Program-made: the position numbers and the translations under genes
In this document: positions 2,510-48,842 of the stretch, piece by piece
How the letters are laid out: each line of letters starts with the position of its first letter
How positions within the stretch are numbered: position 1 is the stretch's first letter
DNA from: Escherichia coli
Lineage (GTDB): Bacteria; Pseudomonadota; Gammaproteobacteria; Enterobacterales; Enterobacteriaceae
Reading direction: 5' to 3' (one strand)
Length of the DNA stretch: 64,000 bases
NCBI RefSeq assembly: GCF_024223415.1
Contig: NZ_CP100500.1
Notes under the pieces: model-generated
Databases searched by the model: none
What the model saw: only the letters and a program-made list of their open reading frames with translations
What the model was told of the DNA's origin: nothing

Positions 2510-6025
<3,516 letters not shown>

Positions 6026-6046
6026 TGGCGCTAACCATGCGAGCGT

Positions 6047-6145
6047 GCCTGATGCGCTACGCTTATCAGGCCTACGAAAATCTTGCAATGTATTGAATTT
6101 TCATGATTTTGTAGGCCGGATAAGGCGTTCACGCCGCATCCGGCA
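6047..6145. repeat. REP/BIME-type palindromic element (two REP-like palindromes)
   Basis: gcctgatgcgctacgcttatcaggcctac and gtaggccggataaggcgttcacgccgcatccggca match the enterobacterial REP pattern. Confidence 0.7.
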
Positions 6146-6159
6146 AGAAGCTATAAGAA

Positions 6160-6190
6160 AAGGGCGGAGATCATCTCCGCCCTTTTTATT
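6160..6190 (+). terminator. Rho-independent terminator after gyrB
   Basis: GC-rich inverted repeat agggcggagatcatctccgccct followed by a T-run. Confidence 0.7.
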
Positions 6191-6264
6191 TCTGCAATCC
6201 GCAATTATCATCCCGCAAATCTATACTTTTTGGGTCAACACGTAACGCTTTACAGGTGATTATC

Positions 6265-6663
6265 ATGGGGCTTTTTGATGAAGTTGTCGGTGCCTTTCTG
6301 AAAGGCGATGCGGGGAAATATCAGGCTATTTTAAGTTGGGTTGAGGAGCAGGGCGGCATTCAGGTGCTGCTGGAAAAACTGCAAAGTGGCGGCTTAGGGG
6401 CCATTCTCTCAACCTGGCTGAGTAATCAACAGGGCAATCAATCGGTTAGTGGCGAGCAACTGGAATCGGCGCTCGGCACAAATGCGGTGTCCGATCTCGG
6501 GCAAAAACTTGGCGTGGATACCAGTACAGCTTCCAGTTTACTGGCAGAACAATTGCCGAAGATTATTGATGCGCTCTCACCGCAAGGTGAAGTGTCACCA
6601 CAAGCCAATAACGATCTGCTTTCCGCAGGCATGGAACTGCTGAAAGGGAAACTCTTCCGCTAA
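6265..6663 (+). CDS. yidB: Uncharacterized protein YidB (DUF937-like, 132 aa)
   Basis: ORF at the conserved position after gyrB; start placed at MGLFDEVVG (track ORF starts 3 codons upstream at 6256). Confidence 0.8.
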   Translation: MGLFDEVVGAFLKGDAGKYQAILSWVEEQGGIQVLLEKLQSGGLGAILSTWLSNQQGNQSVSGEQLESALGTNAVSDLGQKLGVDTSTASSLLAEQLPKIIDALSPQGEVSPQANNDLLSAGMELLKGKLFR

Positions 6664-38428: not shown

Positions 38429-40195
38429 TTATTCCGTGACTTCCAGCGTAGTGAAGGCAAACTTCTCGCCATCAAATAGCCCCTGACTGGTTAGTTTTAG
38501 CGCGGGGATCACTGGCAGAGAAAGAAACGCCATCTGAATAAACGGCTCATCGGGTAACGGACCGCATTCACGGGCGGCGGCTTTCAAGGCGTCAATTTGT
38601 TCCGCCAGCGACTGCGCCGTGTCGGTGCTCATCAGCCCGGCAATGGGTAACGGCAGATGACTTTGTACCTGGCCGTTACGTACCACGCACAGCCCGCCGC
38701 CATCCTGAATCACCTGATTGACCGCCAGCGCCATCTCTTCGGCACTGCGACCGATCACCACAATATTATGGCTGTCATGGCTGACCGTCGCAGCCAGCGC
38801 ACCTTCATTCAGTCCAAAGCCGCCAAGCAAACCACAAGCCGGAGCCAGCCGTTGCCCGTAACGCTCAAGTACGGCAATAAAGCTCACATCATCGCGATCA
38901 AAACCATTTTCGCTGTAGACGCTGGAGTGGGAGTGCGTAATCAATTCGTTATGGATGACGTCAATGACCCGATAGCGTTTTCCGGGCGTAAATTGCAGGG
39001 CAAAGTCGCTGGCGGAAACTGGCTGGCGGGCAATGGTGTTGCCATATGGCGGAGCGGATTGTGCCAGTCTCGCCGACTCTTCCGCCTGTAAGGTTTGCGC
39101 ATCAATCGGCTCGCCTTTCACCAGTACCTGCTGCACCGTGACCTTACGCGCATCGCTCAACAGGACGATATCGGCCTGCTTGCCGGGTGCCAGTAAGCCG
39201 AGGTGATTCAGACCAAAGTGGCGCGCCGTCGACCAGCTGGCGACGCGATATGCCACATGCAGCGGCACATTGTGTTGTTCGATCAGGCGGCGAATTAAGG
39301 CATCGATGTGTCCTTCATGGGCGATCTCCCACGGGTTACGGTCATCGGTACAGAGCATGCATTGCGGGCTGTTAAATTCGTTGATCAACGGTGCCAGCGC
39401 GTTGAGATTGCGGGCAGCGGACCCTTCGCGGATCATCAACGACATGCCGAGTTGTAATTTCCGGCGTCCTTCTTCCAGCTGATAACTTTCGTGGCAGTTT
39501 TCAATACCCGCAGTAATATAGGCGTTAAGTTCTTTACCACCCAAACCCGGGCAGTGACCGTCCAGCGTCAGGTGGCGAAATGCATCCAGTTTATCGAGCA
39601 GCGCATTCTGCCCGCTAATTACGCCAGGGTAGTCCATCATTTCTGCAAGGCCGGTAACCTGCGGATGGTCCCGCCAGGCGAGCATCTGTTCAAGGGTAAA
39701 ACTGGCACCGTTAACATCGCAGCCTTCCAGGGCGGGTACGCAAGAGCTGACCTGTAAGTACTGGTTTTGCCTTGCCTGTTCGGCACAGCGGGCAAACCAG
39801 GCGAATCCGGCTTCGCCCATCACGTTGACGATTTCATGAGGGTCGCAAATAACGGTCGTCAGGCCGCGCGGCAGGGTAGCGGTTTCAAAAGTGACCGGCG
39901 TCATCATGCTGGATTCAATATGCAGGTGAGCATCAATAAACCCTGGCACCGCCGTTGCGCCGCGAGCATCAATCCGCTGCAAAGCCGGAGCATCAGTGTA
40001 TTCTGCGCCAACACCGGCAATGTAACGTCCTTTAATCACAATTGGGCCGGAAATTTCTCCGCCATTGATCAGGTCGAGAATAGAGACATTATCAATAATA
40101 TAATCGGCAACAGCGTCGCCACGGGAAACGGCTAACAATTCCTGGTATTCAGCCCGGCTAATGTGATGAAATTTATGGTTAATAGAATTATTCAT
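38429..40195 (-). CDS. ade: Adenine deaminase (588 aa)
   Basis: Amidohydrolase metal-binding motif ([13 protein letters not shown]) near the N-terminus. Confidence 0.9.
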
Positions 40196-40368
40196 ATTTT
40201 TCTCATTTTGATTTTATCAATTTGATTATTATTTATCATAAAGAAACGTCGCGAGATTATTAAAGAATATCCATTAATGTGCAATTGAAATGTGATAATT
40301 ATCACTGAACCGTTGTTGTCATTTGTTTTACAAAAGCAAGGGATTAAATCTCCTCCAATGGACAAAAA

Positions 40369-41703
40369 ATGAATAATGACAATACCGATTACGTGAGTAA
40401 TGAATCAGGGACGCTTTCGCGATTATTTAAACTACCTCAGCATGGGACCACCGTCCGCACAGAATTGATTGCGGGGATGACCACTTTTTTAACCATGGTG
40501 TACATCGTTTTTGTGAACCCGCAAATCCTCGGCGCGGCACAAATGGACCCGAAAGTGGTGTTTGTTACCACCTGTTTGATTGCCGGTATCGGCAGTATTG
40601 CGATGGGGATATTTGCTAACTTACCCGTGGCGCTGGCTCCGGCAATGGGGCTGAACGCCTTCTTTGCCTTCGTGGTCGTGGGGGCGATGGGCATCTCCTG
40701 GCAGACCGGGATGGGCGCAATATTCTGGGGCGCAGTTGGACTATTTTTGCTCACGCTGTTTCGTATCCGGTACTGGATGATCTCCAACATTCCCTTAAGT
40801 TTACGTATTGGTATCACCAGCGGAATTGGATTATTTATCGCCTTAATGGGATTAAAAAATACTGGCGTTATTGTCGCCAATAAAGACACGCTGGTGATGA
40901 TTGGCGATTTAAGTTCTCACGGCGTGTTGTTAGGTATTTTAGGGTTTTTTATTATAACCGTGTTGTCATCACGTCATTTTCATGCCGCGGTGCTGGTTTC
41001 TATTGTGGCGACGTCTTGCTGTGGATTATTTTTCGGTGATGTTCATTTTAGCGGCGTCTATTCCATTCCGCCTGATATTAGCGGCGTCATTGGTGAAGTA
41101 GATTTGAGCGGCGCGTTAACACTTGAACTCGCCGGTATCATTTTCTCCTTTATGCTGATCAACCTATTTGATTCATCAGGAACATTAATTGGTGTAACTG
41201 ATAAAGCGGGCTTAATAGATGGTAACGGTAAATTCCCCAATATGAATAAGGCGCTGTATGTTGATAGCGTCAGTTCGGTGGCGGGTGCGTTTATCGGCAC
41301 CTCGTCTGTTACTGCCTATATTGAAAGTACTTCTGGTGTGGCAGTCGGTGGCCGCACGGGGCTGACTGCGGTTGTGGTTGGCGTTATGTTCCTGTTGGTT
41401 ATGTTCTTCTCACCGCTGGTGGCGATGGTTCCTCCTTACGCAACCGCCGGAGCGTTAATCTTTGTTGGCGTGCTGATGACTTCGAGCCTGGCGCGCGTTA
41501 ACTGGGATGATTTTACCGAATCGGTGCCTGCGTTTATTACCACGGTGATGATGCCCTTTACTTTCTCGATCACCGAAGGGATTGCACTCGGCTTTATGTC
41601 GTACTGCATCATGAAAGTGTGCACCGGGCGCTGGCGCGATCTGAACCTGTGTGTGGTGGTGGTCGCAGCTCTGTTTGCACTGAAGATTATTCTGGTGGAT
41701 TAG
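40369..41703 (+). CDS. adeQ: Purine (adenine) permease, NCS2/AzgA-like (444 aa)
   Basis: Multi-TM NCS2-type translation; divergent from ade. Confidence 0.85.
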   Translation: MNNDNTDYVSNESGTLSRLFKLPQHGTTVRTELIAGMTTFLTMVYIVFVNPQILGAAQMDPKVVFVTTCLIAGIGSIAMGIFANLPVALAPAMGLNAFFAFVVVGAMGISWQTGMGAIFWGAVGLFLLTLFRIRYWMISNIPLSLRIGITSGIGLFIALMGLKNTGVIVANKDTLVMIGDLSSHGVLLGILGFFIITVLSSRHFHAAVLVSIVATSCCGLFFGDVHFSGVYSIPPDISGVIGEVDLSGALTLELAGIIFSFMLINLFDSSGTLIGVTDKAGLIDGNGKFPNMNKALYVDSVSSVAGAFIGTSSVTAYIESTSGVAVGGRTGLTAVVVGVMFLLVMFFSPLVAMVPPYATAGALIFVGVLMTSSLARVNWDDFTESVPAFITTVMMPFTFSITEGIALGFMSYCIMKVCTGRWRDLNLCVVVVAALFALKIILVD

Positions 41704-44986: not shown

Positions 44987-45910
44987 TCACTTATGCCGCG
45001 CCGGACGATTTATTTTTCTGGCGCGGCGACGGGAATCCATTGAAATCAAAATCACCGATGACAGAATCAGCAGCGTTCCCAGCCAGTCCGGTAATGTGAA
45101 CGTGATCCCCAGCAACAGCAAAGAGAGTAGCGCGCTACTTAATGGTTCTGCACAGCTCAAAATGCTGGCTTTTGGACCGCCAATTAATTGTGCTCCTTTC
45201 AGGTACAGACTAAATGTCAGGGACGTACCAATGACCACCAAATAAAAAAACGCCAGAATCAAACTGCCGTTAACGACAAAGTTTGTTCCTTGTCTGGCAT
45301 AAAAAGGCAACAGAATCAGACCGCCAATCAGCATACTCCAGCCGACGACTGGTAACGTGCCATAGCGGGCAATTAGCGTTGAGGGATAGGTGGTATAGAA
45401 TGCAGCAGCAAATGCCGAGGCAATGCCCCAGAACAACGCGGCAGGAGAGATCGATAATGACGTCGGATTACCGTGTGTCACCAATAAAAAAGTCCCGACC
45501 AGCGATGTCAAAATAGCGCAGAAAACCAGAATGCCCGGGCGCGATTTACGCACCAGTGAGAACCAGGCGACGATAATCGTCGGTGAGAGGAATTGCAGCA
45601 CCGTTGCCGTGGCTGCGTTCGATTTTTCGATGGTTAGCAAAAAAGTGAGCTGTACAGTTAGCGCGCCAACCACGGAAAAAATCAGCAGGCTAATGGCATC
45701 TTTATGATTGTTAATAATAGAAAAGATTTTATCGCCATGAACAAATGACAGCGTCAGTAGAATCAAACCGGCGAATATCAAACGCGTCATAGTCAAAAAC
45801 TGCGACGACATCTGGCTTTGCTCCATGATGTATTGCGCGCAGACCCCTGAACTTCCCCACAACACGGCGGCAATCAGAACGTTCAGCATCCCCTTTCTGG
45901 TGGAACCCAT
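44987..45910 (-). CDS. yicL: EamA/DMT-family transporter YicL (307 aa)
   Basis: 10-TM duplicated EamA-like translation. Confidence 0.85.
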
Positions 45911-46020
45911 TTTTCCCTCTGCATACTGTTTTGTCGTTTATGTATGCAGGCATGATAGCAAAAATGGCGAGGATGGCTCTGTTTGCGCCACGCCGATTTT
46001 TCTTAGTCCAGACTGGTGAG

Positions 46021-47205
46021 CTAAATATCTTTAATAAACAGCAAGCAAATCATCGCAATACCCAACATCCCTATCGCCAGCCAGAACAACGCATGGTAGC
46101 TCCAGATTTCAACCATAATTCCGTCAACAGAGCCGGCGATAATCCAGCCGACGCGTGAAGTATTTGCATATAACGTTGTCGCAGAGCCTATTTTTTCAGG
46201 CATCAGGTCCTGAAAATAAAGCATGCCGATACCACAGAGAATACCAAGGAAGATGGCATTTAGAATTTGCAATTCCAGCTCAACTGCCGGAGTCGTCGCC
46301 ATGAGTACGCTGGCGTAAAAACACATTCCACTCACGATAGCAATGAGCATTAATAGCCGCTTGCCAATACGTTTCATGTAATAGCCTGCGATTAACATCA
46401 TCGGAATTTCCAGACCGGCAGCGATACCAATCATTTCTCCAGCCAGTTTATCGGTTAGATGCAGTTCATCAATAATAAATAGCGGCATATTTATCATGTA
46501 GAGATTATTCGCCGCCCACATCATTGAACAGACCACAAAAAGTAGCCGCGTATCCCGCTTCCTGTGGGTGGAGGGTAAAATTTCTATGGGTTGGGTAACG
46601 ACAGGAATATTTCTTTGTATTGATGGCAAAAACAACCAGACTATCAGTCCGCAAACAACAAATGCGATGGCAGCGGTGAGATACATCACTTTAAAACTAA
46701 ATCCCATAGCCAGTTCATAAGCGAGCGGTGGCCCGATAACCCAGGCAAGCGAGATCTGAGCACGTAAAAATGTACTGAACATGACCGTCTCACGGCCTGT
46801 TCTGTCGGCGTGTTCACGGGCGAGAGCGAACATTTGCGGGTTTGCGGTAGAAGCAAAACTACTCAGAAGTACGCCCGTAGAGAGCAGAATGAAGTAGTTG
46901 CGATTCCACGCAAAAAGCGTGCAGGCCAGCACTCCAAATAAGCAACATAGCAGGATCAGTAATTTACGGTCGCCTTGTTTATCGGAGTGCCTTGCCAGAA
47001 ATTGACTGACCAGAATTCCCATAATAGCGCTACCGGTGAAGAAAAAACCTACCATTATAGGACGGGCTTTCAGTTCATCTGCGAGGAATATACTTAGGGT
47101 AGGAGTCTGAAGAGCGCCCGCAATACCCGTCAGAAAGGCGACAAGTAAAAATGCCGCGGCAGTGAGATCAAGTATTTTTGATGGAGTGGTAGCCGTTTTT
47201 TGCAT
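46021..47205 (-). CDS. setC: Sugar efflux transporter SetC (MFS, 394 aa)
   Basis: MFS translation MQKTATTPSKILDLTAAAFLLVAFLTG...; last backbone gene before the island junction. Confidence 0.9.
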   Translation of the reverse strand: MQKTATTPSKILDLTAAAFLLVAFLTGIAGALQTPTLSIFLADELKARPIMVGFFFTGSAIMGILVSQFLARHSDKQGDRKLLILLCCLFGVLACTLFAWNRNYFILLSTGVLLSSFASTANPQMFALAREHADRTGRETVMFSTFLRAQISLAWVIGPPLAYELAMGFSFKVMYLTAAIAFVVCGLIVWLFLPSIQRNIPVVTQPIEILPSTHRKRDTRLLFVVCSMMWAANNLYMINMPLFIIDELHLTDKLAGEMIGIAAGLEIPMMLIAGYYMKRIGKRLLMLIAIVSGMCFYASVLMATTPAVELELQILNAIFLGILCGIGMLYFQDLMPEKIGSATTLYANTSRVGWIIAGSVDGIMVEIWSYHALFWLAIGMLGIAMICLLFIKDI

Positions 47206-47841
47206 TCTTCTGAATCACCGGGCGACAAAATATAACTGAGTTACAAATAAGTACCAGTCGAATGAGTATTGTATTAAGAATTTTTGAGTATCGCTGATAC
47301 AACCAGAAAACAATGCTAGCGCAATATTATAGGGCCAGCAATTGAGATTATTAGCAAAAGCATGTTAAGAATTAATCACCGAATTTATATTTAATTATAG
47401 TAAGGCAATGAGCTATTTTTGATAGTAAAAATAAAACAAGTTGATTTGATATATTAAATGAACAAATTAATCTTGATGGCAGTCTGATTATTGGTGAAGT
47501 TTATAGGTCAGTTTTTTTCGCCAGCTGTTAAAGGAATAGAACAGTCGTATAAAAAAGGGTGTTCTGGAGCGTGTAAAACAACATCTTCACCTTAATGGCG
47601 ATACAGTTGGCTGAGAGTCAGCAGGGGGGCAAATCACCTGCAAATAAACACGGCGCATGCTGGCGCGAATATCGCGGATGCGTTCGAGGACAGAAGAACC
47701 GACAGGCGGATTCTTCAGTCGCTCATCGTCCATCACAAAACCTTTGATCAGGTATTCCTGAAGCCGATTGAATATTGAGCAGTAGAAAATCTCTGGATTG
47801 ACAGTATTACAAGGGGTTGGAGAATGTCAGAAGAGGCATTT

Positions 47842-47864
47842 TGGCGGAGATCACAGGAGTCGAA
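47842..47864 (-). repeat. Imperfect direct repeat of the 3' end of tRNA-Sec (selC), the distal att junction of a selC-integrated island
   Basis: Minus strand reads TTCGACTCCTGTGATCTCCGCCA, the selC 3' end with one base missing (as I recall the tRNA); backbone lies on one side, island cargo on the other. Confidence 0.7.
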
Positions 47865-47996
47865 TATAAGTATTAATGCATTGATCTTAAATAATTTGTA
47901 TGTATTGGATAAATGAGTAACCCCCATAAGAACCCCCAAATGATTTTGCATGAAGGAATGAAGCTAAAATACATGATTGAATCAATTCTTAGTACT

Positions 47997-48842
47997 CTAT
48001 TGTGAAGGTAACATTTCCGGATAGTGTCTGGCTATAATATCATTTAGCCGATCAACCAGTTCTGGTTTCCTGAACGTGATGTGCGCGGAGCCTTTCTTAA
48101 AGTATCTGATGCTGAACATCTCATCTTCATAGCACTCTTTACCCTGAACAGACCGGATGTGATCATCCAGATGAATGGTGATGTTTTCCCGGTTGTCGGG
48201 GATCGGTTTACCGCTGAACAGGTGCAACATTCTTTCCAGATCGGCGAGTCGGTCAGCCTGTTGCCCGGTGATAAGATGAAATCCCCACCGGTCCCACCTT
48301 ACTAGGTTGTTAATGATAATTTTACTGCCAAATTTACAGGGGCAATTAGTTTTGTAATTCCAGCTCAGTCCCCTGAAGACGTTGATCACCCCTCGCTCAA
48401 ACACTTCATCTTTGTTCTGGTGCAGTTGTTTAAATGTGCTCAGAATGTTCGCTTCACTGATTTCCGGAAAATTATCGTACTCCAGTGACCGGTACCATGT
48501 ATCACGGGCCTGCGCATCCATTAATGACAGCATCCCGGAACGTTGCATCAGGTCACGCCAGATTTCGCGGTCAAGGTTGCGGGTGATGGCTTTCATTGCT
48601 GTTTCAGGTTTCTCCATGAGCCAGCATCCGCAGCGAAAATCCTGTTTCATCGCCCAGTCCCGTGCGCTTTTACCACCAATGCTTTTTGTCAGTACTGAGA
48701 TTTCAGTCAGTTGCCGGATAAGCGTTTCGGTTTGTTGCAGTGCTGCATTCCGTACCGTCACAACGTGTCGGATACTGGTGGAGCAGATAACGTCCGTATT
48801 CCCGGTGACCACTTCCGGATGGGAGATTGTGATGTTTGACAT
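47997..48842 (-). CDS. Hypothetical protein, probably DUF4942 family (281 aa)
   Basis: Intact ORF downstream of the CbtA module; domain assignment is recalled from annotations of this gene neighbourhood, not computed. Confidence 0.55.
   Translation of the reverse strand: MSNITISHPEVVTGNTDVICSTSIRHVVTVRNAALQQTETLIRQLTEISVLTKSIGGKSARDWAMKQDFRCGCWLMEKPETAMKAITRNLDREIWRDLMQRSGMLSLMDAQARDTWYRSLEYDNFPEISEANILSTFKQLHQNKDEVFERGVINVFRGLSWNYKTNCPCKFGSKIIINNLVRWDRWGFHLITGQQADRLADLERMLHLFSGKPIPDNRENITIHLDDHIRSVQGKECYEDEMFSIRYFKKGSAHITFRKPELVDRLNDIIARHYPEMLPSQ

Follow-up and report, generated by a model that had tools for sequence, protein, structure and literature searches.

The selC-setC intergenic region of E. 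coli K-12 has already been described in several separate lines of work. A 331-bp 'promoter island', 3834632_331 selC(+)/setC(+), is listed in Table 1 of Panyukov and Ozoline (2013; PMC3661553), where it carries the H-NS code 'A', indicating binding in all ChIP studies compiled, and where setC is marked as predicted foreign. According to the same report, at least four H-NS-bound promoter islands, which are not named, gained transcription upon deletion of hns, an observation cited there as a manuscript in preparation. SELEX peaks of the RpoS and RpoH (sigma-S and sigma-H) holoenzymes were detected in the selC-setC spacer of K-12 by Shimada et al. (PMC5493296). The rhuM gene is known as a cargo gene of SPI-3, the Salmonella (S. 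Typhimurium) island located at tRNA-selC (PMC3680342). Inside the K-12 spacer, a pseudogene is annotated as yicT (b4653), and in other genomes PGAP calls at the same place a pseudogene 'rhuM, incomplete, internal stop'. These annotations, together with the promoter-island and H-NS tables, are prior knowledge.

Against this background, we analysed the corresponding region within a 64-kb stretch of E. coli DNA (hereafter, the window) that includes the end of an island at selC. The spacer occupies positions 47206-47841 (636 bp) and extends from the start codon of setC (47205) to a copy of the selC 3' end that begins at 47842; both the coordinates and the size of 0.64 kb given in an earlier note on this DNA were exact. 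In MG1655, the spacer between the end of selC (3836316) and the start of setC (3836953) covers NC_000913.3 positions 3836317-3836952 and is also 636 bp in length. By global alignment, 635 of the 636 positions were aligned with an identity of 97.3%, the two sequences being distinguished by 17 substitutions and one indel. The setC start, the AT-rich part, the RhuM fragment and the selC end are arranged in the same order in both genomes, and the stretch, bounded by the setC start codon and the selC 3' end, belongs to the K-12 type of selC-setC intergenic region. The two loci differ at the junction: in the window the island sits between the spacer and selC, so that a 23-nt repeat of the selC 3' end stands in place of selC. 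The closest allele found was that of the island-free strain XH990 (654/658 bases identical, 99.4%), in which setC, the rhuM fragment, an intact tRNA-Sec gene (selC) and yicJ lie in line.

The spacer is the DNA normally found between selC and setC in E. coli that have setC, and it is annotated and published already. When positions 47206-47900 were used as the query for megablast, at least 80% of the query was present in 3607 of the 5426 complete E. coli genomes, with 95-99% identity, and in island-free genomes the match spanned query positions 1-659, followed by the annotated tRNA-Sec gene. The AT-rich part alone (47206-47601) was found as a single copy in 3629-3675 of these genomes (96.7-99.5% identity), a count close to that of setC itself (3721 genomes), and in complete E. 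coli genomes it was never located at another locus and never covered by an annotated feature. A distant blastn search of E. coli genomes and plasmids retrieved copies of the AT-rich part only from the same locus. Apparent 'plasmid' matches turned out to be mislabelled chromosomes and were rejected, as was a 47-nt match in Fusobacterium, which was considered to be noise.

We consider it highly probable (about 0.85) that the spacer is an ordinary intergenic region split from selC by the island, and that it is a composite of an H-NS-coated upstream part of setC, a dead rhuM fragment and the flank of selC. The island would have integrated into the 3' end of selC, moved the pre-existing spacer away from selC, and left the 23-nt repeat at 47842-47864. 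The segment 47206-47601 most likely holds the promoter or promoters of setC, and H-NS, by coating this segment, would keep the low-GC, apparently horizontally acquired setC gene poorly expressed. For the strain under study, silencing by H-NS is what we infer; H-NS binding, holoenzyme binding and the promoter-island status are taken from the K-12 literature. The segment 47602-47763 would represent a dead internal fragment of rhuM from an older element once residing at selC, and 47764-47841 would be the original 78-bp flank of selC.

The base composition indicated that the spacer is a mosaic and not evenly AT-rich. The GC content is 0.522 for the whole window, 0.460 for setC and 0.384 for the spacer, and within the spacer it is 0.323 for 47206-47601, 0.525 for 47602-47763 and 0.397 for 47764-47841. 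The earlier note had described the spacer as visibly AT-rich with a core at about 47230-47560; the GC content of this core is 0.296, and the windowed GC profile agreed with the description, the setC-proximal 396 bp being AT-rich and a GC-normal patch, at 47602-47763, lying inside the spacer. The AT-rich segment falls into the lowest 0.09% of all 396-bp windows across the 64 kb, and its AT content stays well above the background over hundreds of base pairs, as expected for H-NS-type DNA. Only one other stretch, at about 39981-40566, contains 396-bp windows with a GC content of 0.36 or less (minimum 0.341); it covers the 5' end of an ORF at 38429-40195 (minus strand), a gap, and the first bases of an ORF at 40369-41703 (plus strand). 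No intact gene was found in the spacer by inspection of the ORF list, in which the longest ORFs within the spacer are 49-50 aa, in line with the earlier remark that the spacer has no convincing ORF. The 49-aa ORF at 47587-47736 (minus strand) corresponds to the reading frame of the RhuM pseudogene.

The GC-normal patch is a fragment of a RhuM-family pseudogene (K-12 yicT, b4653) on the minus strand, which corresponds to residues 121-185 of a 345-aa protein. By tblastn with the intact RhuM of strain H105 (WP_001280586.1), positions 47602-47763 on the minus strand were matched with an E value of 3e-21 and 68% identity, and the translated fragment matched the Pfam profile PF13310 (Virulence_RhuM) over model positions 50-98 of 252 with 49.3 bits (E 5e-13), above the gathering cut-off of 33.7 bits, even though a complete ORF is lacking. 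MG1655 yicT (3836425-3836556) corresponds to window positions 47602-47733. The family PF13310 is shared with rhuM of SPI-3 and with the intact E. coli rhuM at selC; compared with the intact 345-aa rhuM, an 8-codon deletion and a premature stop codon at 47587-47589 were observed here, and the N- and C-terminal parts are missing. As judged from this truncation, together with the deletion, the stop codon and the absence of both termini, the fragment is a relic and not a gene. A six-frame Pfam search of the AT-rich part revealed neither the missing 3' half of rhuM nor any other decayed coding relic at E values up to 1, and relaxed tblastn with RhuM and with the hypothetical protein of H105 gave only noise outside 47602-47763. 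The relic is a fossil of an older element linked to selC; the event is ancient, and its trace is common to roughly two thirds of E. coli. It illustrates how DNA beside a tRNA hot spot, though 'native', may hold a species-wide fossil of earlier cargo (yicT/rhuM).

The selC-proximal flank (47764-47841, 78 bp) directly abuts the selC 3' end in island-free genomes and was the most variable segment of the region, with 10 of 79 columns varying among the eight alleles compared. It contains the sole strong sigma-70-like consensus match in the region, consisting of TTGACA, a 16-nt spacer and GAGAAT at 47798-47825 (plus strand), which is directed away from setC. Next to this flank lies the copy of the selC 3' end that forms the junction repeat between island and chromosome (47842-47864, minus strand). 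When read as its reverse complement, this 23-nt copy, TGGCGGAGATCACAGGAGTCGAA, gives the final 24 nt of tRNA-Sec, less one A; with this 1-nt deletion it was missed by an exact pattern search, and it was recovered by gapped local alignment, in which it scored 21 against 9.6 +/- 1.2 for shuffled probes and matched 23 of 24 selC positions. The copy aligns with the intact selC of other genomes and is the only selC-end copy in the 64-kb window. No tRNA gene was detected in the window by ARAGORN, and with this single copy of the selC end, selC itself must lie beyond the island, outside the window. As expected of an att remnant, the tRNA 3' end is thus directly repeated at the distal boundary of the island. 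Genomes sharing the same island terminus, which includes DUF4942, DUF957, DUF5983 and CbtA/CbeA, matched on to 47900, whereas the match of island-free genomes stopped at 47864, and a clean boundary of the selC island is thereby placed at 47864/47865. The terminal non-coding 132 bp of the island (47865-47996) have a GC content of 0.288, lower than that of the spacer, and are followed by a DUF4942 gene on the minus strand (47997-48842) and by a CbtA/CbeA toxin-antitoxin block of the kind that CP4-like islands typically carry; about 85 bp of this terminal segment are conserved in the H105 remnant at roughly 79% identity.

We next consider the AT-rich non-coding region upstream of setC (47206-47601, 396 bp, assigned to the minus strand), whose K-12 counterpart is the published promoter island. 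For conversion of K-12 positions to the window, an offset of 1977 bp between U00096.2 and U00096.3 was used, the difference between the two genome lengths. By this offset conversion, the 331-bp island 3834632_331 occupies window positions 47219-47549, essentially the AT-rich core of the earlier note, and a listed promoter island is thus found at the orthologous K-12 position. The island resembles the present region in being AT-rich and located upstream of a predicted-foreign gene, and binding of H-NS has been reported for the K-12 counterpart. The earlier note had also remarked that AT-rich DNA of this kind is a typical H-NS target, and for the 97%-identical K-12 counterpart this is supported by the published ChIP compilations (PMC3661553).

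In contrast to the promoter-island call, which requires start points predicted by PlatProm to be very dense over 300 bp or more, the density of plain consensus hexamers in the region was no higher than base composition predicts. A promoter consensus scan gave no site in 47206-47601, and three promoter-like sites in the region as a whole against 3.8 expected from shuffles. Ten -10-like hexamers were counted in the 396 bp, six times the window average, against a composition expectation of 10.0 +/- 3.5, and no -35/-10 pair was found in this segment. A terminator scan revealed one weak hairpin-like site, at chance level. The high-affinity nucleation motif of H-NS, TCGATAAATT, had no match in the spacer with one mismatch or fewer and four matches elsewhere in the window, against 4.4 expected by chance. 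This motif is not known to be obligatory for H-NS binding. Neither Rfam in permissive mode over 46800-48200 (E up to 1) nor Pfam in all six frames of 47206-47601 gave any match.

The earlier note had offered two options for the spacer, the native upstream region of setC or the decayed remnant of an earlier insertion at the hot spot. Taken as an event in the history of this strain, the second option could draw on the RhuM fragment, whose family is known as selC-island cargo from SPI-3 (PMC3680342), and on the mosaic GC content of the three segments (0.32, 0.53 and 0.40). However, island-free genomes, K-12 among them, have these 636 bp, with the RhuM fragment at the same place, between setC and a complete selC, and the spacer occurs in about 3,600 genomes. 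In addition, a search from yicL to 47841 for a further selC-end copy, left by an older insertion, gave none; the best local score there, 9, did not exceed the null of 9.6 +/- 1.2. Full-length identity with the intergenic region of island-free genomes had been named in the earlier note as the refuting outcome, and the alignment extended over the full length (635/636 positions at 97.3% identity for MG1655, 654/658 bases for XH990). The strain-specific reading is refuted by this alignment, and we give it virtually no credence. Being collinear from end to end with the selC-setC regions of island-free genomes, the spacer is the native upstream region of setC and not debris peculiar to this strain. 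The idea of a decayed remnant survives for the RhuM fragment, about a quarter of the stretch, for which the tblastn and PF13310 matches given above speak. The AT-rich tract beside the island is then neither island DNA nor a scar of the history of the strain, and it should not be added to the island or taken to point to a second insertion; beyond correct annotation, the significance of this result is small.

A different question is whether the AT-rich 396 bp do anything for setC. They might be inert filler, either the decayed interior of the ancient rhuM element or DNA that arrived with setC, so that only a short proximal promoter matters and the binding of H-NS is passive. Such a reading is compatible with the scans, in which promoter-like sites were no more frequent than base composition gives and no H-NS nucleation motif, RNA family match or protein relic was found, and with the loss or interruption of the spacer in natural strains. 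Among eight alleles, the part distal to setC (47501-47601) varied like the fourfold-degenerate sites of setC (15/101 versus 30/190), as inert DNA would. In the 295 bp nearest to setC (47206-47500), however, 11 of 295 sites were variable, significantly fewer than among the fourfold-degenerate sites (30/190; Fisher p 6e-6) and than in the adjacent relic and proximal flank (24/241; p 0.005). This lower variability fits some functional constraint, but it could instead reflect a lower mutability of AT-rich DNA and not selection. Two sets of K-12 data also argue against mere filler: the holoenzyme SELEX peaks, which offset conversion places upstream of setC at distances of about 120 and 22 bp (PMC5493296), and the gain of transcription from some H-NS-bound promoter islands, at least four and unnamed, upon deletion of hns (PMC3661553). 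On balance we regard inert filler as unlikely, though well worth keeping in mind. Highly improbable, in our estimate, is an unannotated small gene or small RNA hidden in the spacer. Candidate ORFs can be named, of 44 aa at 47168-47302 (minus strand), 34 aa at 47491-47595 (plus strand) and 50 aa at 47595-47747 (plus strand), and the reduced variability of the setC-proximal 295 bp could be read in the same sense. Against it, neither Rfam, at E values up to 1, nor Pfam, in all six frames, gave a match, two of the short ORFs (49 and 50 aa) overlap with the RhuM relic, and the curated annotation of MG1655, detailed enough to include the 19-aa YicU nearby, has only yicT in the spacer.

The gene downstream of the AT-rich region, setC (46021-47205, minus strand), whose start codon bounds the spacer, is an intact ORF of 394 aa for a transporter of the MFS sugar-efflux family. 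The product matched Pfam MFS_1 with an E value of 7e-41, the gene is annotated as setC in the matching genomes, and its identity to MG1655 setC is 98.9%. Mean pairwise divergence among eight alleles was 0.037 at codon position 3 versus 0.001 at position 2, indicating that setC is under purifying selection. In a peptide-pattern scan of one genome per species (100,044 species), the closest relative of SetC was 72% identical at most; the matches (65-72% identity), of which the best came from representatives of Escherichia, Citrobacter, Klebsiella and Salmonella, resemble paralogues of the setA/setB type. Since no relative above 72% was found among these species representatives, setC, present in 3721 of the 5426 complete E. 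coli genomes, appears to be confined to part of E. coli. On the other side of setC, within the stretch 44987-47205 that both genes occupy, yicL is identical to that of MG1655 at all 924 of 924 positions, whereas the adjacent setC (98.9%) and spacer (97.3%) are less so and the spacer is 99.4% identical to that of XH990. This difference points to a breakpoint of recombination, independent of the island, close to where yicL and setC meet (45911-46020).

An alternative allele of the locus bears on the age of this block. Intact rhuM was found in 843 of the 5426 complete E. coli genomes, and one of these, H105, which lacks setC, was compared by aligning its locus positions 4182-6581 with window positions 45940-47949. 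In H105, a segment of 1,074 bp (GC content 0.351) takes the place of window positions 45940-47829, that is, of setC and nearly all of the spacer; its single encoded protein, of 165 aa, matched no Pfam family. Read towards selC, the 1,074-bp segment is followed by a degenerate selC-end copy, by about 100 bp that resemble the end of the island family seen here, and by the intact 345-aa rhuM, after which comes selC. In that genome rhuM is located directly downstream of selC, in the same orientation as the relic described here, with the second, degenerate copy of the selC end on its other side; setC, present in the window, is missing there. With the restricted distribution of setC and the replacement of a 1.9-kb block in the H105 allele, it is conceivable, at slightly less than an even chance, that setC with its AT-rich leader, together with the rhuM relic (about 45940-47829), constitutes one old, E. 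coli-restricted islet at selC and not core chromosome. Should this be the case, the spacer would be internal to a fossil island, and the H-NS coat would be silencing left from that acquisition.

The spacer is dispensable in nature, and the locus has been repeatedly eroded. In the LEE-bearing O157-like strain CEC96047, the spacer and most of setC are deleted; only 174 nt of the setC 3' end are left there, and the espG side of LEE adjoins. In Z142-6, the spacer matches over the first 55 bp only and is followed by an integrase fragment flanked by IS1; an IS1 is inserted inside the spacer of EC0880B, and setC of E300082 is cut short by IS2. The exact junction of the window is shared by MFDS1006657, in which the selC island is longer than 48 kb and selC lies beyond the 49-kb stretch examined. 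The contents of the MFDS1006657 island (1-48300) include a complete type VI secretion cluster, in which Tle1/Tli1 are present, as well as Ag43, hha and a gene of the IrmA family.
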